Below are positions 36,522 to 57,666 of a stretch of DNA of 64,000 nucleotides, in pieces. This DNA is from a virus. Positions within the stretch are counted from its first letter, which is position 1; the number at the start of each line of letters is the position of its first letter. The stretch is from the IMG/VR virus record IMGVR_UViG_3300045988_122072, positions 96,001 to 160,000 of that record, one strand, 5' to 3'. A program made the position numbers and the translations under genes. The notes below the pieces were generated by a model, which saw nothing but the letters and a program-made list of their open reading frames with translations, searched no databases and was not told the DNA's origin.

Positions 36522-37622
36522 TTATCCTTTAATTTGTATATCATTAAAATGTTTTTTGATAATTAATCTTCCGTCTTGCACTTCGGCATTAAATTCATCA
36601 AATGGGCATTCGTTACCGCTATCATCAACAATTAGAGTGCCATTATTTTCACTAAATGCAGAGATACCAACATCGGTTTTGACGTTTTTAACATCTCCTC
36701 GTACAATCATTGTCTCGCCAGCTATTTTTATATTAATACCAGTGGGGGGCTCTAATGTTATATCTCCTCTAATTTTAACGATGTTATTATCAACATAAAT
36801 AATAACGGCATTTTTAATCTCGTAGTTATTTAATAATCCATCTGATACTTTCATAGGATATCTAAAAGACATTGTTAATTCTCCACTACCAGAAGCTTGG
36901 AAACTATTTATGCCAGCAGATAATGCAGGAAAAACAAAATTAAAATCATCGTTGAAAATTCTTGCGGTATTATCAGAATACGCAACAAAATTATTATCTA
37001 TTGTTATCGTTTCCCCTTGCTGCAGCTGCTTAAAACTTGTCTCTTCACCAATAGTATTATTTTTAACTGAAAAGCTTGCGCCATTTTGATTATTTTTAAA
37101 TATCATGCGAGGATAAATACACGAGTATAAATCATCGCTTTCGTTATCTATATTAAAATTTGTCTCACCATTTAAAGTAATCTTTACTGTTTTAACCTCT
37201 GAATATGCCCATGGGCTAACTGATGTAAATTCGGCTCTAATACCAATAACTCTAGCATCCATTTTCTGCAATTTAATATCTGTAAATCTTCCTAGATATG
37301 AGCATACAATTTCTCCATCCATATTATAAACATCCATCCAAGCATTCTTTCTTGATCCAGTAAGCCACCTTAAAACAGATCTGACTTTAAACGGCTGAAT
37401 ATCATCACCATCGATATCTACAAATGTAACTGACGGTTTTGCTACATCGTTATATTTTGCCCCATAATCTGTGCGCATTGAACCATCAAAATTATCCGTA
37501 TAAACTGGTTCCATAGTCAAATAGGTATCTGTTTCTCCAGAATCAGGGTTAAATGTTGCGACAACGAGTCTCTCATCATAATTGCTTCTATTTCTAAATT
37601 CAATCTTAGGATGGTAAATCAC
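36522..37622 (-). CDS. Distal tail protein (Dit-like)
   Basis: GTG start after AGGAGG. Its position directly after the tape-measure gene and before the Tal-like gene supports the call. 366 aa. Confidence 0.55.
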   Translation of the reverse strand: MIYHPKIEFRNRSNYDERLVVATFNPDSGETDTYLTMEPVYTDNFDGSMRTDYGAKYNDVAKPSVTFVDIDGDDIQPFKVRSVLRWLTGSRKNAWMDVYNMDGEIVCSYLGRFTDIKLQKMDARVIGIRAEFTSVSPWAYSEVKTVKITLNGETNFNIDNESDDLYSCIYPRMIFKNNQNGASFSVKNNTIGEETSFKQLQQGETITIDNNFVAYSDNTARIFNDDFNFVFPALSAGINSFQASGSGELTMSFRYPMKVSDGLLNNYEIKNAVIIYVDNNIVKIRGDITLEPPTGINIKIAGETMIVRGDVKNVKTDVGISAFSENNGTLIVDDSGNECPFDEFNAEVQDGRLIIKKHFNDIQIKG

Positions 37623-37694: not shown

Positions 37695-40600
37695 TCATCT
37701 TGTGAACCTTTTTAAACTATTGTTAACGCCCTTCATATAAGAATCTAGTTGAGCCTTAACTGCATCCTTAATATCAGGTATAGAATCCCTATCAGCATGT
37801 TCGATATTGATCATATTGCCGAATGACATATTAAGCTCAATACTATTATTGATAATATAAGGAGCGCCAATCTTAGGTTTATTTCTGTCAAGAATATCTT
37901 TCGGATCTAGAGTCCCAAGCTTCATAAGATTATCAGTAATATCACTTGGAATCACAGAACTGCCTTTACTTAGATATTGTAACCTACCATTCGTGTCTGC
38001 ATGTAATACTAATTCTTCTAGCCCAAGTTCGTCAGTAATTGCAAATTGGTCGTTTGGAACTTTCTTAATACCTTTTGCATATCCCTCTATGTCGCTTAAC
38101 TTGATCCAGCCAGTATACTGTCCGTTTCTGCCAATTAGCACTTCAGAGCCACTAACTTGATAAACAGTAAATGTAGAACCAGGAACCCAAGATTGCATTC
38201 TAGTACCATTGCCGCCATCTCTAGTAAAGTGAGTAGCAGACTTCTTAACAGTCACGCTAGAACCATTAGCCGGAGCAGCAGGTTTTTGAGGAGCACTAGG
38301 TTGTTGTGGAGTAGATGGCGTTGGAGTAGTATATGTCGCACTAGATGTCTTGTTGGCATTTTGATTAGTAGCGTCAATTAAATGTCTTGCTGTCTCATCC
38401 GCCGCAGCTTGTAAATCAAGAAGTTGTTTCTTAATTGCTTCTAGTTGCGCAGTAAACGCACTTGTAGATGTATTTAATTGATCTTGATAAGTACCTATCG
38501 CAATTACGCCTTGTTCCCAAGGATTTGTAATTGCTTCTGACAAATTAATGCCATATTCATCGGCAATTTCTTTTAATGTCCCTGCAACTACTTCTGTATT
38601 TCCAGTAATTGTCGCAAAACTATCAGCGATTACTTGCTCAACATTCTTTAGATATTCATCAAGAGCTTCCATCTCTTTTTCTTTTTCGTCTTGATAGTTC
38701 TCTGCTTGATCGTCCAACGCATCTTGTTGTTTCTCGATACTATGACTATAATATAACTCATCTAATTCTTCTTGTGCTGCGGCAAGTTCCGCTTCAAGCT
38801 TCTTTCTTCTGGCAATAGCACTTGCGGAATTATCCCCAGCTATTGCAGCAAGTTGCTTTTGAATATTTGCAATATTCTTTTGTTGCTCTTCTACCTGCTT
38901 AGAGAAATCATGAGCATCTTTAGAAAGTTGCAATTCCTCTTTCTTTTTATTTATAAGCTCATTATAAGCGTCAATTTCCTCTTGCATCGCATTTTTTGCA
39001 GCATCAACACGAGTTTTATTAAGAGCAATAAGAGCATCTTTTGCAGCCTCATATGACTTTATACTATCCCATTGTCCGTCTTTGAGTTCTTGTAGTTTTT
39101 CGTTATACTCATCTGTACTATACTTTCCAGCGGCATATTCTTGATTAAGGTATTCAATTTGTTCTGCATATTGTTTTGCCCTATATTGGGCGCGTTCCAT
39201 TTCTTGGGCAAGTAGACCCATTTTAGTGATGCCCTCATTAGTCCAATTGCCCATTTCATCGGCAATATCCTCATCATCGATTAAATCGCCTAAATTAGAT
39301 ATTTCATTGCCGACATTATCAATAGCTTTAATAAGACCATCAAAGTTATCCCAGTGTAACTGATTGATAGAATTTTGGAATCCTTCAATCTCTTTACGGC
39401 AGTCAATAATAGCCTTGTCAACATCTTGAATTGCGGCGACCCCTTCATACCATTCCTCAGAGCCGACATCAATATTGCCAGCAGAAACCTGAGCATCAAA
39501 TTCTTTTTGCATGTCATTGCGTTTCTTTTGAAGTTCATCGAGTTCTTTGATGCTATTCTTAATCATTTCTTCATACATTACTGCAGAAGTACGTTCGCCT
39601 TGCTCGTCTATCAGATCAACGTTCGCCTGAAGCAAATCGTTAAGAGTTGTAATCTTAGTAATAACTCTATCATACTCATCCGCAATAGTTTGCACTTTTT
39701 GTAATGAGAGTGATGTAATTTCTTTCTTGACTTGTTGCTGTTGTGTTCTTACATCTGATGCTTTTTGTGCCCATTCACGATAGTTATTAATTGCCTCTAC
39801 AACTTCTTGATTAGCTTCTCCTAAGAATTCTGTTAAAGCAACACCGCCATTTTTAGCAAGCTCTTGATATTGCTGTGGTATCTTCTCTAAAAGTTGTGCG
39901 GCATAATCCGCATAAAGTTTATAACCTTCTCCAAGTTCTGTCAATTTATACTTATTAACATTGATCATTTGATCTTGAATATCATTTTTAGCAGAAATAC
40001 CTACGGCATTTTCTAGTGCTGCGGACATATAATTTAAATCATCATCAATCTCTTCAAGCAAAACTGCGAACCAATCGAACATTTCTTCAAAATCATTGGC
40101 AGCATCAGAAAGATCATCTCCAGCGTCAGATAAACTATCTGCTGCATCATTCAAATCTGTCCAGAAATTATCATTCTTAGCGCCACTATAATAAGTTGGC
40201 GTCGTATAATCTGGAACGATTGTTACATGTGCATTACCTTCAGAGTAGGCTTTGCCACGAGAATTGATATGCCCGTTCTTGAACAACTCTTCGGTTTGCT
40301 TGTGATTAAAGATAATTGCATTCTTTGGCAAATCTACAAATTCTGCGCCATTATCTCCAACAGTATAATATTTGCCAGTTTTAGGGTCTACAACGGTTTC
40401 CATCCCGAGTTCGCCAACTAAAGCATCATCTTCTGCTTGTGGCAATCCCCAATTACCAGATGCATGAGCTGTGCCATCTGCATATATTGTCAGTCGTCCG
40501 CTCGCACCAGGAGTATGAACTGTTTGTTCGGTTCCCTTACCGATGGTTTGATAAGCTGTTGTAATTGTAAATGTTTTATCACTAATGCTTGTCGCATTAA

Positions 40601-43600
40601 GCTTATCAAGTTTCGCTTGAACTGCACTTACGTTTTCTCCTGTTGCTACAAGCTCAGAAGATGTAGATTCAATCTCGCTTTCTAGATTTGAAATAGCTCC
40701 AGTATCTCCAACATAATGGAGTAATTTAGCCGTTTTATCTGCATCCTGACCAATACCTTCAAGAAGATTCTTAACGACAACTCCATCAACTTCCAATCCT
40801 TTGGTATCAAGTTGGAATAGTTCATCACTTGTCCATTTCCCATCATTTTGCTTCGCTTCGTCAATAAGTCCCCAGATATACTTATCTACAGTATTGGAGT
40901 CAAGCAATTGTGGGCCATTTTCTGTCTGTAAAATCGGAGTAAACGATATGTCTTCTCCATCAAATTCACCAACAGAACTTAATAAAGTGGAATATGTGCC
41001 AACCAAATCATCGGCTTTCATGCCCCAACTATCTATTGCGTCGCCATACTTATCAAGTGACTCTTCGTCCCAATATAGTTCCTGACGATCATTAGTATCT
41101 ACATTCCCATATTTTGTTTGAGATAAATCTGTGCCAATGTCATCTGCAAGAGATTTAGCATTAAGTACATCTGTTACATATTGATTAATAAGATTGTCAA
41201 GTTCTCTCATTCCGTCAGAAGTGTCATCAATGGCAGACGCTACCTCTTTGCCAGTATAAGAACCGTTGCCCTGCAAATCTTTTACAACGCCAGCAAGGCC
41301 AACTGAACTAAAGCCAGATGATTCAACGGCTTTGTCTCCGCCGAGACTAAACATTTCCATAATAGTATTAAGATAACCATCTTTATATTTGGAAAGTTCG
41401 CCCTCAAATCCAGTCCAATCTTTTTCATCATACTCTCCAGGAACAGCACGAATAACCAAGTTATACTTATCAGAATCAAGAAGATCCTGCGTTGATCCAT
41501 TCGTGACAAGACCATCTATATAGTCGGCAAGTGCATCAGATGTTAAAACATCTCCATTCTCAAGAACAGGAGTAATATCAATAGTATACTTATTCTTATC
41601 CCCAATTGTTACAGTCTCTGCGGAAGTACTTGCATAGATTTCTCCGTCAGAGCCGATGAATGAATTGTATCCTCCACCCATAGCAAGATCATGTTCATAC
41701 GATGGAGATAAATGTGGACGTTTACGAAGGTCTACATTACCGTTTACCAATTTTTCATATTGCGCGCACATTTCTTCAGCATATTTAGCAAGCTTATTAA
41801 GTTTTAGCTTATCAAATATGTTGCTGATAACATTTGTCCCGCTTGCATATGCTTTGCCTCTACTATTAATATAACCATTTTTAAGCAGAGATTTTGTTTG
41901 CTTATGGTTAAATATAATATCGCCTTTTTTGACATCAGCAAACTCTGCGCCATTTTCTCCAAGCATATCCCAACGATTTCCACGCACACGAAGTTCTGGG
42001 CCTAATTCACCAACTAAAGATGTATCAGCTGATTCTGCACCCCAATTGCCAGAAGCGTGAGCCGTACCATTAGCCATTGTAGAATTTAATTCATAACGGC
42101 TACGACGTCCACTATGCTTCGTCGCTGTCTGATTTTCATTTACCTCACGATATGTAGTAGTTACAGTAACACCAGTAGGAACTCTGTCAATTGCGTCAAT
42201 CAAATTATTAATTGATTTTACGGCAGCAGTGCTATCAACACTTGGGTCTGGGAGTGCCTCAATAGCCTTCTTCGCTGCTTCTGCGGCAGTTTTTACTTCT
42301 TCAATTTGTGCCTTTGCCTCTTCTTTATTTTCAACAAGAAGGTTAATAACTCCTTTGTCATTCAATAAATCCACGTACTGTTGTAGCTTCTGACGCTCAT
42401 CATCAGTGATCTCTACATCTGGCTTGATTTTATATCTACCATCTTCTCCAAGCTCTACAAGCTTACTATCATCTATATTAGCTATATTCGCTTTGACTGC
42501 CAGCTCGTTATTATTTGCTTTCCACACAGCCATTTGAGAGTCTATGTCATCTAACGCAAGCTGAATTGATACCTCTGTGGGTTCTTCTAGATTGTACTTT
42601 TTCTTTAATGCCTCTCCAAGTTGTTCAGTTAATTCTTTAACTTTTTTAGTTTGTGCATTTATTTCTTCTTGAGTATATCCACTATTAGGTTGATTCATTT
42701 CATTCAGCTTTTTCGTAGCTTGTTCAACTTCATCTTTTAAATTTGTGACTTCCTTCGTGACATTTTGATACTCTACAGCATTCTTTCTTGCATCTTCTGC
42801 GCAACCTTGTAGCTTACTATTAGCTTCCTGATATTTTTGTGCCCATTCTTCAACGCCAATTTCATTATTTGCTAAAGCGACATCCAGCTCCGCCAAATTT
42901 TTAGTCGCCATAAAAATATTGCCTTCAAGACCTAAGTCAAGCTGGTCGAAAACGGAACCAAAGTCTCCATTTAACCATTCTGCATCATAAGAATCAATTT
43001 CTGTAAACATTGCAAAAGCCATTTCTTTTGTAATTTTCATCTTATCACAGAAATCATCTAATGTTTTAATATCACTTGAAAGCTCAAAATGTTGCCAATC
43101 ACCTTTATTTGTAAATACCCCTTTTTCTTGAGCGCTTTCAATGAACGCCTGAACATTATCTAAGGTCATCTCTGCGCTTTCAAGGGTGCCATCATCACTA
43201 AATTTCAATGTAAAATATTTACTGAAATCCGAATTCTTTAAATAATTGGCAATAGCAGCGACTTTTTCTTCTACCGTATCAAAACCAGCATAAACATCTT
43301 CTGGAATCATACCTGCCACAGCAGCCTTAAAAGATTCTGTTCCAAGTTTTGCTGATTGCAATCCTTCAATAAGTCCAGAAATCATATCTTCTGCTTTGCT
43401 GCCATAATCCTTTGCTTCATCGGCAGATTTTGCGTCTTCATATTTTTGATATGCATCCGCAGCTCCAAGCAACTTCTGTTCAAGAAGGCTATACTTTGCG
43501 ATTGTTCTTTCTACTGCTCCCATTTCTTTATAAAGAGCATTAATTTCTTTTGCGTTAGCTTGCGCGAGTTCGCCATTTGCTCCAGTTAATTGCTTAATTT

Positions 43601-46229
43601 TCTTATACAGCTCATAATACTTTAATCTAGCTTGAGACCTTTCAGTTCTTGCATTTTGAGCAGCTTCTTGTCTCTTCTTTGTAATCAGCTTGTTAAGCAG
43701 TGACGCATTTTTAACCACGTATCCATTTGTTGTGTCAATTGCATCTGCATATTCTTTTTCATCACCAATGAGTGTTTTTAATGCTTCGCCCTGTTCGTCA
43801 GTAAGTTTTATTTTATCATAAACTACTTCGTTTTGAACAGATTGTGCACTAGTAACTTTATCAATTTCATCAGCATAATTAGAAAAAGTACTACCAACTG
43901 GATCGACTTTATTAAGCTCAGCGTGTGCGGCGGCAGAACCTAAAGAATTAATTTGATCCACAGCATCTTGTGTACTAAGCCCAATTTTATTTAACTCATT
44001 CCTAAATTCGCTATAATCTGAACCATTTAACGAATCTGCTGTAAGTTCTCCAGTCTCCGCCAAAGAATATAATTTCTTTTTAACCTCTGGATACTTTTCT
44101 AATAGAGCATCAAATTGTTCGGTATAATATTCACCTGGGTTAATTGTTTTATCTATATCAAGTGCCATTTGCTTAAGCTTATTTGCGAAATCATCATCGA
44201 CATTTTCGCCATAATTATCTAGATAATCATATAGCTCTGTTCCATATGTAGATAATGTTTCTTTAAGATTTTGCATTGATGATTCAATTGACTTCTTTTT
44301 AGAATCTAGGGCAGACTTTTCGTCCTCACTCATTGCACTAGTATCTGTATTAATAAGCTCATTCCATTCTTGCCTTAACTCATTATATTTTTCAATGCCC
44401 TTTTGAATATAGCCTTCTTTGTCTATACTACCATCAGAAATATATTTTAAATCTCCATTCAGTTCATCAGATATTTGTGCCTCAACTCTTAGTAACTCTG
44501 CTACTGCCTCATCGCTTAATTCTCCCCATTGCGATACATCGGCAAGCATATTATACAACTTTTCAGAATACGGTTTAATTGCATTTCTTAAATTATCATT
44601 AATGATTTGATTATTTTTTGCATTTTCTATTTCAGCCTTGGCAATTGTGGCATTACCATACCTTTCGTCATCTTTATTGGTTTTAACTTCTTCTATGCTT
44701 AAGTTTTTAACATTAAAATCTTTTTTATAATCTTCTTTTGTTTCTTTCTGTAGTTCTTTTTGCTTAGAATCTTTGCTTTCGTTTAACAGTCTTAATCTTC
44801 TTTCCAATTCCTCATTGGTTTGTTTTAAAGTTTCTAATTCTTCTTTTTCTACAAAAGATAGGTTATGTTTTCCTTCTAGCTCTTCAATTCTATTTTTAGT
44901 AGTCTCAAGTTCAGAATTTAGGCTTTCAATTTCATTATTTAGATCTTGAATTTCATTCTTTAATTTCTCTGATGCTGGAGTCATATTAGCTATCCAAGTA
45001 ACCAACGATATAACTAAAGTAATAGCCATCAAAATCCATCCAACCGGATTAGACGCCATTAAAGATTTCAGTGCTGCCGCAACGCCATGAATAGACGTAG
45101 AAAGTCCTTGATTCGCAGCGGTCAAACCAAATGCAGATATAATTTCTGCGCCCTGAGCGGCAGTTAATGTCCCCGTTGCTACCGCTTCTTGAACTTTTGC
45201 TAATGTCAGTTCTGTTTCTCCCTGAGTTAAAAGCCAGTTGGTTGATTCAGCAGAAAGCTTTACTGCTCCCTCAGCAGCCATTGCTGCAGCATTTGCAGCA
45301 GTAACCGTAGTTTGTTCAGTTTTTGCAGTCGTTACTTGGGCCTCTGATACTGCCTGTTGTATATTCGCTTTATCTACTCCGTTTTTGGCCATTGCTTCTT
45401 CTATTTGTGCCTTTGTTAAACCAGCAGAAGCAAGAGCTGCCGCCTGTTGCTTCGCGGTTAAATCACTAACTGCGGCAGCATACGCACTAAGATTTTGCAC
45501 ATTAAATTCGGCAGCAGATATTTTACCAGCTTCTCCAAGTCCATTTAATGATTGAATTGCCTTAATTTTCTCCAATGCCTGTCCATAATTAGATACATTG
45601 GCGGAAATTTCTTTAAACATAGTAACTGGGTTTATCTTTTTAGAGATTAATAAATATGAAACTACTCCTGCTAATACTGATTTAAATAACCCAAATGAGT
45701 CTACAGCTTTTACAACTGCGGTTCCTAAATTAACGAAAAATTTAATCCAGCTACTGTCGAGCGCATCAGACCACATTGTCTGAACTGCATTTTTAAATAG
45801 GGTGATTCTTCCCTGAATGCTGTTAAGTTGTTTTTCATTTTCAGCCATTGCAGAACCTTCTGCATCTAATGCGTCTTGATATGCACCTTCAAGGTCTTCA
45901 ATATTGGTAAGCATTGCAGCCATAGCATTTGAACGGTTTTTACCAGCGAGCATTTCAAGTAATGCCGCCTGATCAATGTCGCTCATATCTTTCCAGACAG
46001 TCGCAATTTCTTTTATAATATCATATGTTGCCTTATAGTCGCCGGTTTCAGTTAAAATATCTACACCAGTTAAAGCTTTAACTTTAGATTGAAGCTTGCT
46101 GACACTCTCTACTACATTATCAGTTTCTTCGCCTAGTGATTCCAATTCCTCTACACTTGTACCTCTAATACGTAGTGAGATGGTACGGAGGGCACTTCCT
46201 ACGCTTGATGGATCCTGTAATACTTTATT
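37695..46229 (-). CDS. Tape measure protein, exon 2 (2844 codons plus stop)
   Basis: Frame is open upstream of the ORF-track TTG start back to 46232. It begins NKVLQDPSSVGSALRTISLRIRG. A TM segment and long coiled coils follow. There are two GTAHASGNWG...LVGELG...NSRGKAY modules and a C-terminal SH3-like segment. Confidence 0.75.
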   Translation of the reverse strand, partial: NKVLQDPSSVGSALRTISLRIRGTSVEELESLGEETDNVVESVSKLQSKVKALTGVDILTETGDYKATYDIIKEIATVWKDMSDIDQAALLEMLAGKNRSNAMAAMLTNIEDLEGAYQDALDAEGSAMAENEKQLNSIQGRITLFKNAVQTMWSDALDSSWIKFFVNLGTAVVKAVDSFGLFKSVLAGVVSYLLISKKINPVTMFKEISANVSNYGQALEKIKAIQSLNGLGEAGKISAAEFNVQNLSAYAAAVSDLTAKQQAAALASAGLTKAQIEEAMAKNGVDKANIQQAVSEAQVTTAKTEQTTVTAANAAAMAAEGAVKLSAESTNWLLTQGETELTLAKVQEAVATGTLTAAQGAEIISAFGLTAANQGLSTSIHGVAAALKSLMASNPVGWILMAITLVISLVTWIANMTPASEKLKNEIQDLNNEIESLNSELETTKNRIEELEGKHNLSFVEKEELETLKQTNEELERRLRLLNESKDSKQKELQKETKEDYKKDFNVKNLSIEEVKTNKDDERYGNATIAKAEIENAKNNQIINDNLRNAIKPYSEKLYNMLADVSQWGELSDEAVAELLRVEAQISDELNGDLKYISDGSIDKEGYIQKGIEKYNELRQEWNELINTDTSAMSEDEKSALDSKKKSIESSMQNLKETLSTYGTELYDYLDNYGENVDDDFANKLKQMALDIDKTINPGEYYTEQFDALLEKYPEVKKKLYSLAETGELTADSLNGSDYSEFRNELNKIGLSTQDAVDQINSLGSAAAHAELNKVDPVGSTFSNYADEIDKVTSAQSVQNEVVYDKIKLTDEQGEALKTLIGDEKEYADAIDTTNGYVVKNASLLNKLITKKRQEAAQNARTERSQARLKYYELYKKIKQLTGANGELAQANAKEINALYKEMGAVERTIAKYSLLEQKLLGAADAYQKYEDAKSADEAKDYGSKAEDMISGLIEGLQSAKLGTESFKAAVAGMIPEDVYAGFDTVEEKVAAIANYLKNSDFSKYFTLKFSDDGTLESAEMTLDNVQAFIESAQEKGVFTNKGDWQHFELSSDIKTLDDFCDKMKITKEMAFAMFTEIDSYDAEWLNGDFGSVFDQLDLGLEGNIFMATKNLAELDVALANNEIGVEEWAQKYQEANSKLQGCAEDARKNAVEYQNVTKEVTNLKDEVEQATKKLNEMNQPNSGYTQEEINAQTKKVKELTEQLGEALKKKYNLEEPTEVSIQLALDDIDSQMAVWKANNNELAVKANIANIDDSKLVELGEDGRYKIKPDVEITDDERQKLQQYVDLLNDKGVINLLVENKEEAKAQIEEVKTAAEAAKKAIEALPDPSVDSTAAVKSINNLIDAIDRVPTGVTVTTTYREVNENQTATKHSGRRSRYELNSTMANGTAHASGNWGAESADTSLVGELGPELRVRGNRWDMLGENGAEFADVKKGDIIFNHKQTKSLLKNGYINSRGKAYASGTNVISNIFDKLKLNKLAKYAEEMCAQYEKLVNGNVDLRKRPHLSPSYEHDLAMGGGYNSFIGSDGEIYASTSAETVTIGDKNKYTIDITPVLENGDVLTSDALADYIDGLVTNGSTQDLLDSDKYNLVIRAVPGEYDEKDWTGFEGELSKYKDGYLNTIMEMFSLGGDKAVESSGFSSVGLAGVVKDLQGNGSYTGKEVASAIDDTSDGMRELDNLINQYVTDVLNAKSLADDIGTDLSQTKYGNVDTNDRQELYWDEESLDKYGDAIDSWGMKADDLVGTYSTLLSSVGEFDGEDISFTPILQTENGPQLLDSNTVDKYIWGLIDEAKQNDGKWTSDELFQLDTKGLEVDGVVVKNLLEGIGQDADKTAKLLHYVGDTGAISNLESEIESTSSELVATGENVSAVQAKLDKLNATSISDKTFTITTAYQTIGKGTEQTVHTPGASGRLTIYADGTAHASGNWGLPQAEDDALVGELGMETVVDPKTGKYYTVGDNGAEFVDLPKNAIIFNHKQTEELFKNGHINSRGKAYSEGNAHVTIVPDYTTPTYYSGAKNDNFWTDLNDAADSLSDAGDDLSDAANDFEEMFDWFAVLLEEIDDDLNYMSAALENAVGISAKNDIQDQMINVNKYKLTELGEGYKLYADYAAQLLEKIPQQYQELAKNGGVALTEFLGEANQEVVEAINNYREWAQKASDVRTQQQQVKKEITSLSLQKVQTIADEYDRVITKITTLNDLLQANVDLIDEQGERTSAVMYEEMIKNSIKELDELQKKRNDMQKEFDAQVSAGNIDVGSEEWYEGVAAIQDVDKAIIDCRKEIEGFQNSINQLHWDNFDGLIKAIDNVGNEISNLGDLIDDEDIADEMGNWTNEGITKMGLLAQEMERAQYRAKQYAEQIEYLNQEYAAGKYSTDEYNEKLQELKDGQWDSIKSYEAAKDALIALNKTRVDAAKNAMQEEIDAYNELINKKKEELQLSKDAHDFSKQVEEQQKNIANIQKQLAAIAGDNSASAIARRKKLEAELAAAQEELDELYYSHSIEKQQDALDDQAENYQDEKEKEMEALDEYLKNVEQVIADSFATITGNTEVVAGTLKEIADEYGINLSEAITNPWEQGVIAIGTYQDQLNTSTSAFTAQLEAIKKQLLDLQAAADETARHLIDATNQNANKTSSATYTTPTPSTPQQPSAPQKPAAPANGSSVTVKKSATHFTRDGGNGTRMQSWVPGSTFTVYQVSGSEVLIGRNGQYTGWIKLSDIEGYAKGIKKVPNDQFAITDELGLEELVLHADTNGRLQYLSKGSSVIPSDITDNLMKLGTLDPKDILDRNKPKIGAPYIINNSIELNMSFGNMINIEHADRDSIPDIKDAVKAQLDSYMKGVNNSLKRFTR

Positions 46230-46271
46230 CTTTTATATTTAATACGTTTCGCAACAACGTATTGCATGTTA

Positions 46272-47417
46272 TTATTGATAATATTTATTTAAAAATTCAT
46301 TCCATTGTTCCTCAGTGTTGTCACCATAACCATAAATATTATGAAATTGCTTATGAATATTTTCTGATATACATATATAACTATGATATTTTTCTTGCAA
46401 ATCAAAAAATGTTTGGAATAATTCGTCTATTTGTTCTCCCGAATATTCTTTTACATCACTATATATTGGAAAGTTTATCTTATCAATTGCTTCGTCCAAT
46501 ATTAAATTAAACCCTCTTATATGATGAACAACTATATGGGAGCGGCATCCAGTTATTTTACATGTATAATTATTTGCTTCTTTTATTTTATTTTTCCAAG
46601 GAATAAGCTTTTTTCTAATATATTCCGCAATAGTATCATATCCCCTTTTATCTATTGGCCTATATAGTTTTAAGCTCCATAAATGTTGTGCAATTGCTTT
46701 TACTCCCCTATTAAGATACGATGCCAATTCTTCATTTGTATATTTTAAATAATTTTCTTTTAAATACAAATTCTCTTCTTCTGTATATGTTCGATTGGAA
46801 TAATAAAAACTTTTTAAATTCAATTTTCTAGCTTGTCCTAATATCGACGATTTTGTACGTTTTGGGAGCATTGCCATTACCTCATCAAACGATATATTTG
46901 AATAATTCTCTTTTAAAATATCTATTTCATCATTTGACCATTCTCTGTTAGATGTTAAATTTAATTCTACTGCCTTCCTGCTTATTTCTTTAACGGATCT
47001 ATTGTTATTAAGCAAAGTACGAATATTTTTATATGGAATTTTCCCATAATTGTTCATTAGTATATTTATTTCATTATCATTCCACGAAATAGCATTATAA
47101 CGACATTCTTTAGAACAATAATGATGTGTATTCTTATCAACTTCAGATATTTTTCTAAAGAATTGTCTTCCACAAAATTCGCATTTGCATTCTTCCTTCT
47201 TTTCTGTAGATTTTGTTCTACATTCAACACTACAAAAAATTTGTCCAGAATAAGCTGGCCTAAATCTTTCTCCACAAATCTCACAATTTCTATATTTTAG
47301 TTTTCCGTTATTTCTTTTAAATTCATTCATACAGTTTCTACTACAATACTTAGTATTTTCAAAATAATCTGAAAATTCTTTTTTGCAATTATTACATATA
47401 TGATTATATTTTCCCAT
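46272..47417 (-). CDS. Intron-encoded HNH homing endonuclease
   Basis: Three CxxC...CxxxC zinc ribbons, three Myb/SANT-like W/Y-x-EE repeats, and a C-terminal HNH core CRSHIVVHHIRGFN...HKQFHNIYG. Confidence 0.8.
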   Translation of the reverse strand: MGKYNHICNNCKKEFSDYFENTKYCSRNCMNEFKRNNGKLKYRNCEICGERFRPAYSGQIFCSVECRTKSTEKKEECKCEFCGRQFFRKISEVDKNTHHYCSKECRYNAISWNDNEINILMNNYGKIPYKNIRTLLNNNRSVKEISRKAVELNLTSNREWSNDEIDILKENYSNISFDEVMAMLPKRTKSSILGQARKLNLKSFYYSNRTYTEEENLYLKENYLKYTNEELASYLNRGVKAIAQHLWSLKLYRPIDKRGYDTIAEYIRKKLIPWKNKIKEANNYTCKITGCRSHIVVHHIRGFNLILDEAIDKINFPIYSDVKEYSGEQIDELFQTFFDLQEKYHSYICISENIHKQFHNIYGYGDNTEEQWNEFLNKYYQ

Positions 47418-47450
47418 AATTTTATCTCCCGTATATTATCAAAATAAATT

Positions 47451-47624
47451 TCATTTTCTACTATAAAAAATAGCCAATGCATTAAAAAGATCTGACGATT
47501 TTGTATATTTATATGTAGTTACACCATTTATAATTTTAACAAAGGATGGTTTTATACCAATTGTTAATAAATAATCTCTCTCTGGTGTATATTGCGTAGA
47601 ATATTCTTTATCAAATTTTTTCAT
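47451..47624 (-). CDS. small DUF5659-like protein (57 aa) inside the intron
   Basis: ATG 47624 follows GAGGGAAAT. DYLLTIGIKPSFVKIINGVTTYKY...LFNALAIFY resembles the DUF5659 pattern (memory). Confidence 0.4.
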   Translation of the reverse strand: MKKFDKEYSTQYTPERDYLLTIGIKPSFVKIINGVTTYKYTKSSDLFNALAIFYSRK

Positions 47625-47863
47625 ATTTCCCTCTCTAAATAATAACATGCCAATATATTTCTATATTGAATAGACCATATCTTCATCCTCAGCATTACCT
47701 GTTAGGAGCACACCATTTCGTTTAAAGGTATTTAACCAACGCCATTTGCGATTGCGTCCTACTCCTATTGATTTGAGTATTCGGGATTTTACCCTTATTT
47801 TATAATCAATTAGATATTCTCAAATCCCTTCATGGGGATGGCCGTTGAACCTTTTGCTTGATT

Positions 47864-47908
47864 TTAATTTTGTATTGTATATTATATCACAAAATTTAAA
47901 TTTGTCAA
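47864..47908 (-). promoter_or_regulatory. Early-type promoter plus leader box inside the tape-measure intron
   Basis: The minus strand reads CTTGACAAAT, 16-nt spacer, TGaTATAAT, then ACAATACAAAATTAA (47878-47864). Confidence 0.65.
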
Positions 47909-48059
47909 GCAACTTGGATGCTGATTGCCCAATCTTTATAATTTTTAAACATTCACACCTGTTATTACTAACTATGTTGTAGTTTATAAAGCTCTAAGGG
48001 TTTCCCAGCAATTAAATGTGTTCAAATCATATATTTCTATATGAACAGCCATAAAATAT

Positions 48060-51000
48060 AGCTGCAGCAACCAGTGCTACACTTTGTTCAAGATTATTAC
48101 CAGCAGCCATTAAGGAGCTTGCAGAATCTTGCAGTGCAGTCGCAATTCCGTCACTTGAGATTGCGAAATTGTTACCAATTTCATTTAACACGTCAACTAC
48201 GTGCATACTATCTTTTGCGGCATATCCAAACGCCTGAATAGTCGAGATAAGTGCCTCAGATGCCTTATCAGCATCAGTAAATTCAGAAACATTCAATAAG
48301 ACGGCAGTACTCTTGGCGAGTTCTCCAGCTTCTTCAATAGAATAACCAAGACGCGCCCAGGTTGCCGCCATATTGGTCAAATCAGATGTGGTTGCACCAA
48401 CATTTGCTCCAGTCTGAGCCATTGTCTTTAAGAATCTCGCATATGTTTCATCTGTCTCATCAGTAACCTTTTTAAGTTCTGTTAATGCGGAATCTATATC
48501 TTGCACATATTGAGCGCCTTGTTTTATTGCACCCCATATTCTGTAAATGCTACCAAACGAAGCAAGATAAGTCCCTACTTCCTTAAATTTTCCTTTAATG
48601 CCATTAATAAAACTCTCAAATCCAGTTTCAACTGGCTTGATTTTTCCAGGTATAATTTCAACAGCGTTTCCTAACTCTCCCATGATCATTGTCATTTCTT
48701 GTACTTCATGCTTGCCAGTTCTTACTTCATAAGTCATGGTACGAGTTTCTGCATTAAAGCCCTTAAAATTTGCTCCCTCAACAGAACTTACATAGCTTAA
48801 CATTGCATTTTTAACAGCATCAATATCTTTTGGATTAACATTAGCAAAGAATTTTTGGACATCCAAATCTGCTTGTTGCGAATTAATTTTACGTTGCGCT
48901 TCGTCCGCGCCTAACAATGCCTTTTCTGCCTCGGTCGCTCTATCTGCCAAAAGCTTCAATGCGGCTTGCTCTCCGTCAGAATCAGATAATAGTTTGCCGC
49001 TCTGAGCGAGTTCATCTTTTTTTTTCTTCAAAGCGTCTAAAGCATTAAAATATTCTTTGACAACAGTTACGTCATTAACATTAACGCTTTGATCGTTATA
49101 TGAACTTAATGCTTGCTTAACATATTCTTCTCTACCAAGAACTTTTGTGGCGCTATTATATCCATATGCGTCTTTAGACTTCCCAATAATACCATTTCCA
49201 AGTTTGACCAATTCTTCTTGCGCAGCTTTTAACTTGTCAATGTTTTCATCAAGATTATCTGCAGCACTATTTCTAACAGCCTCTTGAGCCGTCCCATATG
49301 CCTTCATTGCTTCCTGATAAGCTTGCATTTCTTCGCTATCCTTATCAAAGAACCCTTCTTTTTGTCCATCAACAATAGCCTGATTAATTTTATGAATAGA
49401 AGCAGTAACATTATCACAAGAATCTTGAAGCTTTTCAGATTGAATATAAGCAGCGTTAAATGCGTCACTCCAACTCATAATGACACTTGTTATTTTGCCA
49501 TCAGCATCTACCATATCAAAAGATATCTTATCTTTAACGAAATCATATTGGCTAAAATCATATTGGCTATTTTTAGATGTAGCATATTGTTTAGCGTAAG
49601 CTTCCATAATAGCTTGGCGATCTGTAAATAGCGTATTTTCTGAAATCTTATTATCTCCAGATATGATTCTGCCTTCTTTATCAAGCGCCTGATATGCGCT
49701 TTGTATCTTCGCATTTTTGGTTAATTCTGTTTGTAGCTCTTTGACTTTTGACACAGCACTGTCTAGTTTCTGAAGATCAGCATCGGTAATGACAGTTCCA
49801 TTTTCTCCTTTTGCGCGAATATCCGCCGCTATCTGTTGTAGCTCTTTAAATTTGTTTGCATATTCTTGGACTTCGATATTATCTGTGCCAAGAATTTTTT
49901 GAATATCAGCATAATTCTTATCGTTCCAACTAAGTGCCTTACCAGCGTCTTTAATTGATCTTTTTGTCCACGCGGAAGTAGAGTCTGGATTAAGGGCGTC
50001 CATCTGAGCTTTTGTCAGAGTAGATTTAACCTCTTTAGTAGTTTCTTCTATTTCTTTTGTACCAATGCCAAGAGCCTCTTTTAGCTTAGACATTTCGGCG
50101 GCAATTTCATCAGCAGACAAACCTTTATATTCATTATAGAATCCTCGCTCATAAGAAGTAAGCTTTTTACTCTCTAATGTAGCAAATAATGTGCGCATAG
50201 CCTGAGTCAATTGATCTGGCAGTGCGCTGTATTCTGTTGCAATACCGCCCATTGATTTATCATATTCACGATTTAGAATCTGAGAAATAAAATCTCCACC
50301 AAACTCTTTGGACAATAAATCTCTAATAACTCCTACATAATCTTGTTTAGAAACATTAGTGTCATTATTTAATACACGGTCGTAATAAGACTGGAAATTG
50401 GCAATAACATTCCTTAATTTACTGTATTCTTCATCTGTTATAGAATATTGTTCACCAACATCATGCCCAGTGGAAATGTCGGATATTGACAGCATACCTC
50501 CGGCTTCTTTCACAACTCTTTGGAGATATCCATTAAGCATTCTTGCCATTTCTCCAGAATTTTGAGCGGCAATATCCTCTCCATTCGCAGTAGAGAACAT
50601 GGCAGTGATAACATCGTTGATTATTGGATATTTTTCTGCGATATCTAAAGCAGTTCCAAAAGAATCTTTTCCTAAATCTATAGACATCATTTGACGCCCA
50701 TAAATCATATTATATTTTTTTAAATTATTTTCGTCCGCAAAATCTGCCAATTGTTCAATATCTGAAAGGGAGAACATTAAATTATTGGTGCCTTTTTTAT
50801 AAGCATGGGAATGCGTCATAGAATCTATTTCTTGTTCTATCTTATCAAACGTAACTTGGAACAGATTGCCTACTGCAAACTCAATTGCCTTCCCATCTTT
50901 TTCCGTAAAGCCATATTCTACATTTTGTTTTGAAACGTCTTTGCCATTATCAATTGCATTAGTTAGTGCAAGAATTGCAGTTTTAAATTGCTGGAACGTT

Positions 51001-54000
51001 TTTACGTTATTAAGCTCTGCGACATCAGTTGCTCTATTTTCTTCATAGCCTAAAAGTTGTCTGGATTTTGCCGTATTAGTGCCTGCCTGTTTAAGTGCAG
51101 TAAGTTTATCATTGGCTAGTTTTTCTAATGCCGCAAGACGAGCCTCTTGTTCTTTTTTGGTCATTTCAGAAACATCTTTTAATCCAGCAGCCGCAGATTC
51201 AGATCCAGCAGTCGCACTTTCAATGCCTTTTTCTATAGCTTTTTTAGCAACCTCCGATGTCTTCTTGACAACTTGTTCTGCACCAGTCTTGACAGTTTCA
51301 GCTATTGGAGTAGAATCAACTTCGCCAATTAATATATCAAGATTTTGAATGTCAGAATCTGATCCGCCATACAACTTAGCATATGCTCTATTGCGAGCTT
51401 CTGTTATATTAGCAATTTCTTCTTTTGATATACCACCATAGGCTTTCTGCTGTTCTATAGATAACTCTGCATCTCTAACTTCTCTTTCCAAAGCTTCTTT
51501 AATTCCAAGGAAATATGCATTTTTCTTTCTGTATAGATCTGCTAGATTTACGCGGAATCCTTTGCCATCGGTAAATACTTTATCTTCAGCAGTTTCTTCT
51601 TCTAAACGAGTAACATCTTCAGAAATTGTACTCATATATGCCGAGATGCTTTCTCCTAACTTTTTATTTACAGAATCATATATTCTCTTACGGAGACTTT
51701 TTTCTAATTCATCTGCTTGATTAAAAACGGTACTAACTTGCTTACCAAATGCTGTTTCAACTTGATCTTTGCCAGTACCCTTTGTCATTGTCATTCCACT
51801 TAATTTTGATTGTAAAATTCCTTTAAGCTGATCATCGACAGAATCTTCTCCAAAATTTTCAACCAATAATTTAGCGAAATTGTCATAATAAATATCAAAG
51901 AATTTTTGTGTCTTTTTATTAATAATATTTTTAATCTCTTCTCCATTATTTAACGATGCTCTTTTAACATCAAAAATACCTCTTACACGAGAAATTTCGC
52001 TTATCAGCTCATCGTTAGACAAGTCTTCATTCTTTAATATTTCTTCTATCGCAGCATTTTCGGCATTATTTATTTTTCTAAGTCTAGACTCTATTGCCTC
52101 TTGAATTTCCTGCTCCATAGTTGCCTGAGCAGTGTCCCATGCAGTTTGATGTAAAGCCACGCCAGCTTCATCATATTTAGACTTAACAAAATTAGAAGCA
52201 ACATCTTGGTACATATTGTTTATTACTTCAGAAATACGATTAGCAATTGCATTTTGAAGCTCATCAACTTTTTCTTGTGCTTTTTCATATAATGACGCCC
52301 TATAAGTTCTAAATTCATCTGTAGATGTGTAATTTGAAACGAACATCTTTTGCAGATTGTCTGCCGCAGATGATTTATTACCATATATAGTAGTAAATCC
52401 ACCTTGCTCTTTATTGAATGTAAGCTTTTGTGCTTTCTGAACATCTTTCGTATAATCTCCAAGCTTGCTAATTTGTTCATTATTTCTGATAATGACTTGT
52501 TGAAGCTCTTGAATTTTTTTAAGTGCATTAAACTTTTTCTGCTCAGGGGACAAACTTTCATCAAAAATATTGGATGAGTTAATGCCGTTAATTTCTTTAA
52601 GCTTATTATATAACTCTGTTACTTCTGTATTTATAATGTTTAAAGCTTGTGTTTTTTCACTAAGAGTTACTGGCGATGCCCCAGATTCCTCAAGCCTATT
52701 AATTTCCCGTACAAGTTCAAGCTCTTCGCTCTTTTTTTGATTATATTCAACTTGCAATTGAGCTACTTGTTTGTTTCTTTCTGCAATTTTTAATTCCTGT
52801 TCTGCTTTTTGAACTTGATTGTCTAAAGATTCTCTTTCTAACTCAATAGACTTTTTTTGTTCTACCAATGGCATCAACGAGGATCTTTGCGATGCAACAG
52901 TATCTTCATATTTATTAACAACGCTATTGCCAACTTCGTATTGTTGTAAAGGAAGTTTTGCCTTTTTAATATACGTACCATATTGCTGAATAATCGAAGA
53001 AATATAATTATTGATAACAGAATTTAGATTACTAATATCAGCGTTAATTTCTTTTTTTGATCTTGCATTATCAACAGATTCTTTCAAAGCATCTATTTTA
53101 CGCTGTAAGATTGCCTGAATTTCAGTGCTCCCTTTATCATTCGCTTCTTTTAATCTTTGTTTATAATCCTTTAATTCAGCCTTCGCATTATCATAGTTAC
53201 TTTTTTCATTAAATAATTCCGCTCTTTGCTGTAATAAAGTTTGTAGCTCTTTTGGGAAAATTTCTAAATTTGATAAATCAAAGTTCTTGCTATTTTTAAA
53301 TTGTTGAAGGGCATCAATCTGTTGTTTTAAAGAATCACGTACATTTTTTGAATTATAAAATGACTGTTTATCCATTCCAGCGAACAAATCTTTCAAATCT
53401 GCATCGTTTAACCCTAAATCATTGCTAATATTCATAATAGAATCAAATAGGCCGTTTAAACTCTCTTGTGCTGTTTGAATTTGAACTGCGACTTTATCAT
53501 ATTCCGCTGTTCCGGCCTGTTTCCCTTTAAGGATTTTCTCAAGAGAAGATAAATCCTGCTGCCTTTGTTTGTATTCCTCAATAGTGGTCTGTAACTGTTC
53601 AAAAAGATTATCATCAAGTTTCTGTTTTTGTTCTGTAACAGATTGCTGAATTTGTCTATTAATTTCCTGCAAAGTAGTCTCTTGTTCTTTTGCTTTTGAT
53701 TCAAATTCAGAAGAAACTTTTTCTCCCTTTTGAACCTTAGTATAATTAACAAGTCTACTTTTACTTTGTTCTAACTCATTTTGTTTATCTGCTAATTCAA
53801 TTTGATATTTAGACAACAATCCCTTATTTTCAGATTCCTTTGCGGCCGAAATTTTAGATTCAATTTCTTTAATTTCTTTGTCAATCGCTTCTTGTTTTTT
53901 TTGCTCAGTAGAAATGGCTTTACTTAAAAGCTCTGGAGATTCTTCGTATTTTTTATACTGCTTGGAAGTATTTACAGTAGTGGCCAATCTTGATTCTACT

Positions 54001-57000
54001 TGCTTTTTTGCCTCAAGTAGTTGAATATAATTATCAGATAAGTTTTTCCCTTCAAACTTTAATGTGCTTTTATTTGGAGTTTTGCTCTGATACTTAACCA
54101 TCAGATCATAAATGTCTTTTTGTTGTTTATAATCTGATTTAAGTGATTCTATTTCTGAAGATTCAGAATAAGAAAAAGATTTAACACTATCGAGCACACT
54201 TTGTGCTGAAGCAACTCCGTCTCTAGCAACCTGCAGCTTTTGATTTATTTCTTCTTCTTGCTTTGCGAGTTGAGCAAATTTTTCATCTCTTGCTTTCTTA
54301 GCTGCCTCTAATTGTTCAGAACTCTTTTGAATATTTTCTTCAGCGACAGAAAGCCTTTCTCCCCAATCAATAGAATATTCATCATTTACTTTAATTTGAG
54401 ACACGTCAAACGGTGCGGGTCTTGGGTTATCTTTTGAATAGAATTGGGTTTGCGCACTTAACTTTGCGTTCTTATTCAAAAGATTATTAATCATTCTTAA
54501 TGCTTTACGTTTTGACGTAGGGGAATCAGATCTGTCTATTATCGTAGGTCTATTAATACCTTCATAATAAATATCGGCATTCAGATCAGACAACATATTA
54601 TTGGAGATACCATAAGCTGTCATTTTACCTTTGCCATTTTTCGCACTAGCTATTTTTAGTCCGGCTCCCTTTTCTCCTTTTCCAAGTTGTCCCAATAATG
54701 TCTGTCTAGAAATAACAACATTATCACCAGCAACCATGCGATTTAACCAACTAACAATATCATTGGCAATTTTTGTAGACGCGTCATCCCCAGAAATTTT
54801 AGACATTGCATCAATAGCTGTTCTAAGAGCATCCCCATGTATAATTTCTTCAGATGGATTAACCCCAACCATAGAATTTAAAAGAGTTTTTGTATCCTCA
54901 CTTGCAGTCCCATAAAACTGCTTAAACATGTTTAATAATGCAGTATACTCATTGCTCTCGCCTTTGGATAAGCCTTTAGTGGCAATCACTTGTTTGTTGT
55001 ATTCATTTATATTAGAATATAATGTATTAATTGACTTCCCAATTTCATCAATATTAGCTTTATATTCTTCAGAAGAAGTTGTAGATTGTAAATCCTTTAA
55101 AAAACTACCTAGTTCAGATAACAGCTGCTTAGTGTCACCTTTTTCTCCTTTAAGCGAATCAATAACGTCTGCCGTTCTTGCATATTTCTGATAAAACTTT
55201 AGCATTTCTGGAGCATTATAGTCTCTATTAATTTTTTCATTGCCAGAAATTGTAGATAAGCCTAAAGATTTAAACAGAGATTCTAATGTGCCGCTTTTAC
55301 CAAGTAACGGGGATAATAGAGCAGTTTGATTCTTATAAGATCCCTTCCATTTACCTGATAGATCGGATAAGTCTGACCCCAAAAGTTCTCCCTTGAATCC
55401 GCCTGTCTTAGTATTCTTTTGCAAAAGCCCGGTTAAAACATTTCTCACATATTCTTCTGTCATTTTTGACAAATCAGTATCTTCGCCAAAAATATTCTGC
55501 AAATAATTCGCCATAGGAGATAGCTTTGCCACTTTTCCATTTGTCATCTTCACAGTTCTGTCGCTAACTTCTTCACCCTTGGCAATTTTATCATTCATTG
55601 CTTTTTGTTTTGAAAGTGACTTATAATATGTCTCTCCAAAATTTTTAGCAAATGCAGTAAGCTGGGCAACCGTTTTTGACATCAGCACCGCGCTCTTACT
55701 ATTTTCTGTAGATGCCATTTTCTGATCTCTTGCGGCATCCGATTGAGCATCAGCAGCTCCTAAATTTTCAGAAGCAGCTTTAGATTGATCTGACGCGGCG
55801 CTTGCTTGAGTATTTGCAGCAGAACTTTGAGTATCAGCAGCGGATGCACTAGAAGTTGTAACCCCACTACCCAAAACTGGCATTACTCCGCCAGAATAAG
55901 TTGCCCCAGAAATGTTTGCAGATATATTAAATGTCTTACTATTGAGAACATTTTCAATTTCTCCAATTAAAAACTCGCCATCTACATACAGTTTTAATGG
56001 CTGTTCGTTAAATAATGCTTCCATTGCAGAAGTAATATTGCTAATATCTTTATTATCAAGTTTTAGCATATTCATCAATTGAGCTTTAATTTCTCTAGCA
56101 TCCGCTTCAATTGAAGTTCTTGCATCATGAATAGACTTTTTTAACGATTCTAGTTGTTCTTTTAATTTTGCAGATGGATCTGTTTTTTCGCCTTCGCCTT
56201 CTTGTTTACTATCGTCAAACGCTATTGACATCGGGATTTTTTTGATTCTTGTCGTTTGTTTAATAATTTTATCAATAAAACCATTAATCTTTTCTACATA
56301 TGCATCAATTTCTGCATCTGCAGGAACATCAAGCTTTAATTCTATAGACTTCAGACCTGCTTTTTCAAGCATTTCTTGTAGCTGGCCTGATAATTGTTGC
56401 ACGGACTCTTTTGCACTATTCAATCTATTTTCTAATTCAGTTACAACTTTGTCTAAATTAGACCCATATGTACTTATTTCTTCCTTGAATGCCGAGCTGT
56501 TAATTCCAAGATCTTTTGATAAACTTCCAGAATATTTACGTCCGATTGCTATAATATTTTGAAGAACGTCTCCGAGCTTTTGTAGCTTATCTATAGGAAG
56601 ATTTTGCAAAAAGTCAACATCGACATCATTCCAGCCAACGATTTTATCAAATTCGTCACCTAGCTTGCCGAATTCTTTAACTATATCTTTATTTTTTAAA
56701 TCAATTGTAATTTCTGGATTTTTTAACTTTGCTAAAAAGTCTTCCATTTCCTTGCCCTTTTTGGCAAGACCCATATCAGAATTTTTAAATTTATTTACCA
56801 CATTAATAGCCGCATTAAAAGATGTAACAATCTTATTTGCAGTCTGTTCTACACTAGTTTGTGTTTTGACTGCATCAACTGTAATATCTTTAAAAAAAGT
56901 TTTTCCAGTTGGATGATTACTTTTATATTGTTGTCCAATCGTATTATAAAACCCAACAATTTTTGCAGCAAGCCCATCGAACCCTTCACCGGCCTCCGAA

Positions 57001-57656
57001 AGCTGTGGCATCATGCCCTTAAGATCGGTCAAAGTTTGTGCAAGCGCTCTGCTGCTTACGTCCCACCCCTTGTTTGTTGCTTGTGTAAGACCAATCTGAA
57101 ACTCACTAACCATTTGGGTCAATTGCCCCATTAAAGAGCTAAGCTTTTCTTTATCGGTTGATTTGCTAATATCATTAATAATGCCTTTAATAGACTCTGC
57201 GGTATCCTTAAGTTTACCAGTCGCTCCCTTTTCGTCATAAACAAATAGATCTGAAAGTCTGGAAAATAGATCAGACGGAAGTGATTTAACAGTATCACTA
57301 AGGCTTGCAAAATTTTCTCTAATATCTTTGATACTTCCAGAAAGTTTTGCAATATCATCCCTATTTTGCTTTAATCCGTCAAAAATCTTAGGTGCGCTAA
57401 CGCCGCCTAATTCTCTTTCAAGCTGAAGCAATCTATCTACAGATTCAACAATGTCCGCAGTTTGCTGTTTTACTTGCTCAAATCCTTTATTCCCTTTATT
57501 CTGAATACCAGAGTCAAAACTCTTTTGCGTTGCTTTAATTTTTTTATCTAAATTTTCTAAACCATCACTTAATGTTTTTAATTCTTTTTGATAATCTTTA
57601 TTTAATTCAACAGTAATACCATACGCATATTGCGCACTAGGCCCTCTGCTACCCAT
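48060..57656 (-). CDS. Tape measure protein, exon 1 (about 3199 codons)
   Basis: ATG 57656 follows GAGGTG (TTG 57674 is also possible). Very long K/E/Q/L-rich coiled coil. It ends in the TP901-type core ...LNEIGNNFAISSDGIATALQDSASSLMAAGNNLEQSVALVAAA. The ORF-track tail IFYGCSYRNI* is intron read-through. Confidence 0.75.
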
Positions 57657-57666
57657 ACTTTTCACC

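Follow-up and report, generated by a model that had tools for sequence, protein, structure and literature searches.

A probable mobile IA-type group I intron in the TP901-type core of a very large phage tape-measure gene

Tourasse and Kolsto (2008) described group I introns of subgroups IA1 and IA2 at three sites of the tape-measure protein (TMP) gene in prophages of the Bacillus cereus group, some of these introns (TMP-IVS1, IVS2, and IVS3) with complete endonuclease genes and some without (PMC2504315). Barth et al. (2023) called the tape-measure gene "frequently interrupted," and that of Vibrio phage ICP1 consists of four exons plus three introns that carry HNH-3 homing-endonuclease genes, its splicing having been shown by RNA-seq and reverse transcription-PCR (PMC10448857). 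In this study, we analyzed a window of 64,000 nucleotides from a virus (IMG/VR record IMGVR_UViG_3300045988_122072, positions 96,001 to 160,000), in which a tape-measure gene is broken by an insert of 1,830 nucleotides at window positions 46230-48059; features lie on the minus strand unless marked (+). We conclude that this insert is very probably a mobile IA-type group I intron, and the tape-measure gene that it interrupts, within the TP901-type core, is very large. It adds another example to the tape-measure introns known already, and the initial annotation of this DNA, which knew of no described intron in such a gene, was wrong on that point, as the B. cereus-group prophages (PMC2504315) and ICP1 (PMC10448857) show.

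The coding sequence on the two sides of the insert forms one continuous gene. The 5' exon (48060-57674, from the list of open reading frames [ORFs], their translations, and a PF10145 match) comprises 3,205 codons counted from a TTG at 57674, with an ATG present at 57656, and its final codon is GCU (48062-48060). The ORF that contains it (48027-57674) reads ...NNLEQSVALVAAA up to ...SVALVAAA, continues with the 10 codons IFYGCSYRNI, and stops at a UGA. The 3' exon (37695-46229, from translation and the continuation of PF10145 over the junction) has 2,844 codons plus a stop and opens with AAU AAA GUA (NKV..., first codon at 46229-46227). Its frame is open back to 46232, where it reads K-NKVLQDPSSVGSALRTISLRIRG... 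(K-NKVLQDPSSVGSALRTISLRIRGTSVEELESLGEE), and the listed TTG start of the downstream ORF, at 46145, lies 28 codons within the conserved domain. Both exon lengths are divisible by three, and joining 48060 to 46229 keeps the frame, giving 3,205 plus 2,844 codons and a protein of ∼6,049 amino acids, with an expected mass of ∼650 kDa. In the spliced RNA, the junction would read ...GCUGCAGCU joined to AAUAAAGUA..., with the peptide ...SVALVAAANKVLQDPSSVGSALR...; the 30-mer over it would be GTTGCTGCAGCT followed directly by AATAAAGTATTACAG, and the predicted junction peptide VALVAAANK / VLQDPSSVGSALR. The spliced peptide matches PF10145 (PhageMin_Tail) in one unbroken stretch that spans the junction (profile positions 38 to 160 of 201, E = 3.7e-16, 60 bits against a cutoff of 33.2), whereas the match of the unspliced upstream product, at residues 3084-3204, ends at profile position 123 of 201, which is the exon end. 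The nearest named homologues of the core are TP901-family tape-measure proteins, and the gene downstream (36522-37622) encodes a phage tail protein with DUF6558 domains; the locus thus combines the PF10145 core, the long protein, and the tail-gene setting of a TP901-type tape-measure gene. Re-reading bore out the upstream ORF end and the frame open to 46232 as first annotated, and the claim that an in-frame join restores a TP901-type core is confirmed by the unbroken domain match.

The limits of the insert are fixed to the single base by alleles that lack it and run across the junction. The window reads GCTGCAGCT, then the 1,830 nucleotides, then AATAAAGTA, and intron-less alleles read, for example, GCTGCAGCT followed directly by AACAAAGTA, with the junction duplex sequence GCTGCAGCTAATAAAGTA. 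Ten intron-less homologues (L003-L012 among the related loci, which we designate by L numbers), sharing 72 to 85% amino acid identity, are collinear at the exact junction. These alleles agree to the base with the limits 46230-48059 and the GCU/AAU join proposed initially. The exon's final base is T at 48060 and the intron's final base is G at 46230; the intron begins AUAUUUUAUGGCUGU and finishes ...AAAUAUAAAAG. Base composition changes at the same limits, with a G+C content of 27% in the insert compared to 35 to 37% in the exons. The assignment of the whole feature as a group I intron is based on the intron-less alleles, this base composition, a match to Rfam family RF00028, and covariation among homologous copies.

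The predicted RNA has the architecture of a group I ribozyme. In P1 (48045-48065), the exon segment GCAGCU (48065-48060) and an intron A pair with the guide UGGCUGU (48051-48045; GGCTGT lies at 48050-48045), and U48060.G48050 forms the wobble at the 5' splice site. P2 is the hairpin UCAUAUA-GAAA-UAUAUGA (48027-48044; 7 pairs, 5 of them compensatory, 100% paired), which also includes the in-frame UGA where the upstream frame stops. The core, P3 to P9 (47651-48020), was delineated by RNAalifold and pair counts and consists of P3 (48020-48015 with 47714-47709, CACAUU/GGUGUG), added as the pseudoknot partner of P7; P4 (48010-48005 with 47924-47919); P5 with extensions and P6/P6a, also within 47651-48020; P7 (47843-47838 with 47678-47673); the P7.1/P7.2 block (47835-47726); P8 (47707-47686); and P9 (47668-47651). 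The segment singled out at the outset as P7-like, AAGATATGGTC, is located at 47683-47673. Downstream of the core, P9.1 is formed by a 5' strand GCAUGUUAUUA (47640-47650) and a 3' strand UAAUAACAUGC (46264-46274), position 47650 to 47640 pairing with 46274 to 46264; its 11 pairs (7 compensatory, 99% paired) enclose the loop that bears two ORFs. The P9.2 hairpin AAUACG...CGUAUU (46241-46263) has compensatory changes in 6/6 pairs, and the terminal G (omega G) at 46230, an invariant column after which the alleles resume at the next base, marks the 3' splice site. The intron is assigned to subgroup IA by the helices located after the 5' strand of P7 and before the 3' strand of P3; these helices (P7.1/P7.2, helices 13 to 16) are 93 to 100% paired, with 10 compensatory pairs.

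This architecture is supported by an Rfam match and, more extensively, by covariation. Intron_gpI (RF00028) matches over its full model (1-253) at 47651-48069, with 39.9 bits and E = 3.8e-8 in a 2.3-kb scan. Homologous introns were gathered via the endonuclease protein family and one DNA-pattern scan, and ten distinct copies were aligned (alignment A2) with their ORFs cut out as natural deletion does. Unguided RNAalifold recovered P1, P2, P4, P5 with extensions, P6/P6a, P7, P7.1/P7.2, P8, P9, P9.1, and P9.2, that is, everything except the pseudoknotted P3, and 61 of the 105 consensus pairs carry compensatory changes. With P3 added, 97.5% of cells hold standard pairs, compared to 30 to 44% when the 3' partners are slid by 1 to 3 columns, and double changes occur in 63 of 108 pairs, compared to 3 to 13 after sliding; the observed pairing values were not reached in any of 500 shuffles. 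P3, P4, P6, P7, P8, and P9 are 98 to 100% paired, every helix with compensatory changes, and pairing is 100% in both P3 and P7, with 3 compensatory pairs apiece, P7 varying among GGCCA/UGGUC, GAUCA/UGAUC, GACUA/UAGUC, and GACCA/UGGUC. We rejected the P3 register implied by Rfam; the register CACAUU/GGUGUG pairs in 10/10 sequences, with 3 compensatory pairs. Both the splice-site U.G pair and the intron-final G followed by AA are invariant in all ten homologues. The guide even covaries with its exon, locus L040 having exon GCUGCU and guide GGCAGU in place of the GCAGCU and GGCUGU found elsewhere, a compensatory change from A-U to U-A. The splice-site bases, the P1 pairing, and the group I identity itself, all recognized in the initial annotation, are thus upheld by the homologues. 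A distant homologue at the same protein position (L035:3351-5464, with a 466-amino-acid nuclease of 44% identity) has a 5' exon ending ...ACC; the canonical U.G splice-site pair is not evident there, and its P1 and P9.2 align poorly.

The larger of the two ORFs in the P9.1 loop (46272-47417) encodes a 381-amino-acid putative homing endonuclease, recognized from its translation, its PHROG family, a conserved motif, and a fold model. Its N-terminal part contains three zinc-ribbon-like Cys4 modules (residues ∼8 to 105), its middle part three Myb/SANT-like helix-turn-helix repeats (∼112 to 250), and its C-terminal part a nuclease-like HH...N...H...H domain (∼286 to 359). The protein matches phrog_1271, "HNH endonuclease," at E = 1.3e-17, and has more than 200 homologues; across the family, H298, H299, and the Cys columns are invariant, and N304, H355, and H359 nearly so. 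In an AlphaFold model with a predicted local distance difference test (pLDDT) score of 85, the best Foldseek match in the PDB is the T5 SciA endonuclease (probability 1.0, target template-modeling [TM] score 0.62, E = 0.02), Myb-repeat proteins match the middle region, and numerous BFVD matches bear the name HNH nuclease or intron-encoded HNH endonuclease. NCBIfam and Pfam searches for an HNH domain were negative both for individual domains and for the 36 family members, and back-translated endonuclease patterns run against IMG/VR yielded nothing that tblastn confirmed. We consider it likely that the protein is a nuclease.

The smaller ORF (MKKFDKEY..., 47451-47624, identified by translation, with the ribosome-binding site GAGAGGGAAAU upstream) encodes 57 amino acids; both ORFs lie within the insert as first annotated. 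This small protein has no match in Pfam, PHROG, or NCBIfam, and yet a search with it returns 880 protein clusters (E ≤ 0.001), of which the 120 best are at least 70% identical, which makes it much better conserved than the endonuclease, whose identity falls to 44%. Most homologous introns have it at this position, L036 lacks it, and in other contigs (L042-L045, where it lies at 3501-3674) it also precedes a different ORF of 304 amino acids at the same tape-measure site. Upstream of both ORFs and facing them, inside the hairpin extension of P6, lies a sigma-70-type promoter-like site (TTGACA-16 nt-TGaTATAAT, 47881-47908), the sole 12/12 match to TTGACA-16 nt-TATAAT, here with an upstream TG, in 45900-48400. 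Hexamers similar to these are found at this position in L014, L036, and L038, and L037 and L039 have weaker ones there. The promoter of its own that the initial annotation ascribed to the insert is therefore present as a site at 47908-47881, and promoter function there is plausible.

Related loci, found by a junction-peptide scan of IMG/VR, exact-protein look-ups, and one DNA-pattern scan, reveal how variable the occupancy of this site is. A homologue of the nuclease sits at the same tape-measure site, between residues 94 and 95 of a 203-amino-acid junction peptide (94/95), in 11/11 of the examined distinct loci that have such a homologue, including the copy of 44% identity. Two introns have lost their ORFs through two different deletions, leaving 503 nucleotides (L014 family) and 457 nucleotides (L032) that keep the ribozyme and the exact boundaries, and L036 lacks the 57-amino-acid ORF only. 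Intron-less, full, and ORF-less forms together make up the series of invasion, decay, and loss expected of a homing intron. Both intron ORFs of the window are 96 to 100% identical to copies in other assemblies, and an independent contig of 168 kb (L029) has a near-identical locus. The relatives come from metagenomic contigs: megablast with 4 kb around the intron found no match among 50,697 phage records, and thus no cultured close relative, no relative turned up when GTDB genomes were scanned with the junction peptide, and the best cultured relatives of the tape-measure core are only 30 to 38% identical.

These data bear on the possibility that no splicing takes place and that two tape-measure polypeptides are translated separately, with a free-standing nuclease cassette between their genes. 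Gene callers indeed annotate two ORFs here and in relatives, and free-standing homing-endonuclease genes are common between phage genes (PMC10448857). However, the break falls in the middle of PF10145, the downstream part has neither a start codon nor a ribosome-binding site at the junction (the TTG at 46145 being inside the domain), and the cassette is flanked by a covarying ribozyme whose guide is paired to the exon. Moreover, the persistence of ribozyme and exact boundaries in the ORF-less forms of 457 to 503 nucleotides is unexplained without splicing. We therefore regard separate translation as very unlikely and favor a spliced group I intron.

Several observations nevertheless weigh against a functional intron with an HNH-type homing endonuclease. 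Its Rfam score of 39.9 bits lies under the curated gathering threshold of 50, so the search proposed in the initial annotation returned the expected match, over the full model but subthreshold, and two Rfam scans of the whole window did not report the intron at all. The low score can be attributed to long insertions of the window copy in P5, P6, and P7.1, which the model penalizes; homologous copies that occupy this site in L039 and L033 reach 70.1 and 52.2 bits, respectively, which exceeds the curated value. P10 is weak, with at most five A-U pairs and a one-base slip as read from the sequence. Four homologues (L001, L002, L033, and L040) have a short P6 without promoter hexamers, and because several copies that are otherwise intact lack the promoter-like site, that site is not essential to the element. 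Finally, Pfam HNH models match none of 36 family members (the 381-amino-acid protein and 35 relatives), and a PDB sequence search with the endonuclease gave chance-level matches only. The HNH label given at first thus stands on PHROG family, conserved motif, and fold similarity, finds no counterpart in Pfam, and is only moderately supported.

The low Rfam score would also suit a decayed intron that no longer splices, in which case the tape-measure gene would be a pseudogene or the phage defective. P7 of the window copy has a G.U pair at a position that is A-U in most relatives, and the intron cycle is known to include decay (PMC2504315). Against this, all core helices of the window copy are intact, its 6 unpaired cells being confined to the peripheral P5b/c region and P7.2b; the exons keep open frames of 3,205 and 2,844 codons; both intron ORFs are intact and shared at 96 to 100% identity with copies elsewhere; and the near-identical locus recurs in the independent contig L029. 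Decay is in our judgment extremely unlikely. A different kind of element is close to negligible as an explanation. Phage structural and terminase genes can also harbor inteins or group II introns (PMC3706429), and a chimeric assembly would be a further source of an apparent insert. An intein, however, is contradicted by the lack of a shared frame with the host protein, a stop following 10 codons past the junction and three stops occurring in the last 40 nucleotides; a group II intron by the absence of a reverse-transcriptase domain or ORF and of any group II Rfam match at E ≤ 10 in 46000-48300; and a chimera by the recurrence of this architecture across many independent assemblies, drawn from ENA, Logan, JGI, and IMG/VR.

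On the preferred reading, a mobile group I intron, the tape-measure gene would be transcribed through the insert, and the RNA would fold into P1 to P9.2 with the P3/P7 pseudoknot. An external guanosine would then attack after U48060, in the U.G wobble that P1 forms with the guide GGCUGU, and the released 5' exon would attack after the terminal G46230, joining the exons into the frame of ∼6,049 codons; such splicing is what the sequence predicts. The promoter in the P6 extension would probably drive transcription of the 57- and 381-amino-acid ORFs, and each would be translated from a ribosome-binding site of its own. The most likely target of the 381-amino-acid nuclease is the intron-less tape-measure allele of a co-infecting relative, which it would cut at the junction or close to it, and repair after the cut would copy the intron in, that is, homing. 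A broader and rather doubtful proposal, which we put forward tentatively, is that the TMP core in a clade of gut or rumen siphophages of ∼150 to 175 kb may be an exceptionally dense homing hotspot, served by an endonuclease of undescribed architecture, in which three zinc ribbons and three Myb-like repeats precede a divergent HNH-like domain at the C terminus. This nuclease would work with the highly conserved 57-amino-acid protein as its partner, which could be a specificity, regulatory, or splicing helper. We know of no description of a two-protein arrangement of this sort for group I introns.

As a side observation, the tape-measure core of relatives is broken at at least five positions within ∼85 codons, located at 37/38, 56/57, 94/95, 105/106, and ∼121 of the junction peptide. 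The contigs concerned (L002, L013-L017, L021, L023, L033, and L037-L040) have inserts of ∼280 nucleotides to ∼1.8 kb, and several bear two or three. L016 is interrupted at 94/95 and 105/106, with a mini-exon of 11 codons between, and the insert of L033 at 56/57 is Rfam supported (2941-3163, 38 bits). A further intron, in L037 (3992-4353, 65 bits), lies downstream of the 203-amino-acid stretch.

For annotation, the consequence is practical. In dozens of related metagenomic contigs, as here, gene callers break this gene up into two ORFs plus hypothetical proteins, and recognizing the intron restores a single tape-measure protein of ∼6,049 amino acids. In this protein, self-BLASTP detects no internal repeats. 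The tape-measure parts of relatives measure 1,554 to more than 2,382 amino acids (N-terminal) and 2,334 to 2,646 amino acids (C-terminal). Tail length follows tape-measure length at ∼0.15 nm per residue, and if this usual rule holds for a protein of ∼6,049 amino acids, the tail would be ∼0.9 µm long, approaching a micrometer. Such a tail would be near in length to that of phage P74-26, reported to be the longest tail known (PMC10034513). The intron leaves our understanding of how such elements work unchanged. Its value lies in a well-sampled natural series, comprising intron-less alleles, full introns, two independent ORF-less forms, a copy without the small ORF, and neighboring occupied sites; more notable than the intron itself are the ∼6,049-amino-acid protein, the five or more clustered sites, and the conserved 57-amino-acid protein.

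Elsewhere in the window, at 464-687 (+), a second full-model Intron_gpI match of 224 nucleotides without an ORF (41.9 bits, E = 1.3e-8 in a 3-kb search) lies in relatively G+C-rich noncoding DNA, with ORF 21-386 on one side and a tRNA array on the other; neither flanking exons nor an interrupted gene could be recognized around it. The array (1045-2842, +) has six tRNA genes (Asp-GUC, Asn-GUU, Ile-UAU, Gln-UUG, Gly-UCC, and Lys-UUU), which fits a large virulent-type phage genome of ∼168 kb, the size of the near-identical contig L029. Directly after its long-variable-arm tRNA-Ile(UAU) (1284-1379) begins a match to the hepatitis delta virus-like ribozyme of Faecalibacterium prausnitzii (RF02682; 1378-1434, +), which scores 33.5 bits where the cutoff is 44 (E = 4e-4 over 1.2 kb searched) and may be a ribozyme that processes tRNA 3' ends in the phage tRNA array.

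The closest parallels to the tape-measure intron are those with which we began. Like the TMP introns of the B. cereus group, it is a group I intron of IA type inside the tape-measure gene of Firmicutes siphophages, with several sites per gene, P1 guides adapted to each site, and an endonuclease gene that may or may not be complete. In contrast to those prophages, the phage studied here belongs to a different lineage, with a TMP of ∼6,049 amino acids compared to ∼1,200, and its relatives have at least five sites within ∼85 codons. As in ICP1, the tape-measure introns carry endonuclease genes of HNH type, with the reservation already made about that label, and endonuclease content varies while the splice junctions are conserved. 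A stretch of ∼100 nucleotides of the ribozyme core is 77% identical to an intron of the ICP1 TMP locus. ICP1, however, is a myovirus of a Gram-negative host, and the endonuclease described here differs from that of ICP1 in architecture and has no Pfam HNH_3 match. A shared insertion site was considered and rejected, tblastn of the TMP core against the ICP1 TMP locus giving no significant similarity.

In T4 nrdD (sunY), the endonuclease ORF is likewise located in the 3' peripheral P9 extension, not in P6 or P8, and intron ORFs have their own promoters. The T4 enzyme, I-TevII, is a GIY-YIG enzyme and its host gene a reductase, whereas two ORFs share the P9.1 loop in the present case. The introns of Staphylococcus phages Twort and K (nrdE, orf142, and lysK) are also IA-type ribozymes, in different host genes, and their endonuclease ORFs are unrelated in sequence to the 381-amino-acid protein; tblastn with this protein gave five weak C-terminal matches in cultured phages, none of them in Staphylococcus phages. 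At the level of the ribozyme, the resemblance is much closer: intron bases 1 to 147 (P1 through P5) share 78.5% identity with the Twort nrdE intron, the part from P7.2 to P9 shares 74% with the lysK intron in relatives of phage K, and the P3-P6 core shares 72 to 82% with introns of Twort nrdE, AR9/PBS1, phiR1-37, and the ICP1 tape-measure locus. By these similarities, the ribozyme is a member of a widespread phage IA family, found in tape-measure genes as well as in other host genes.

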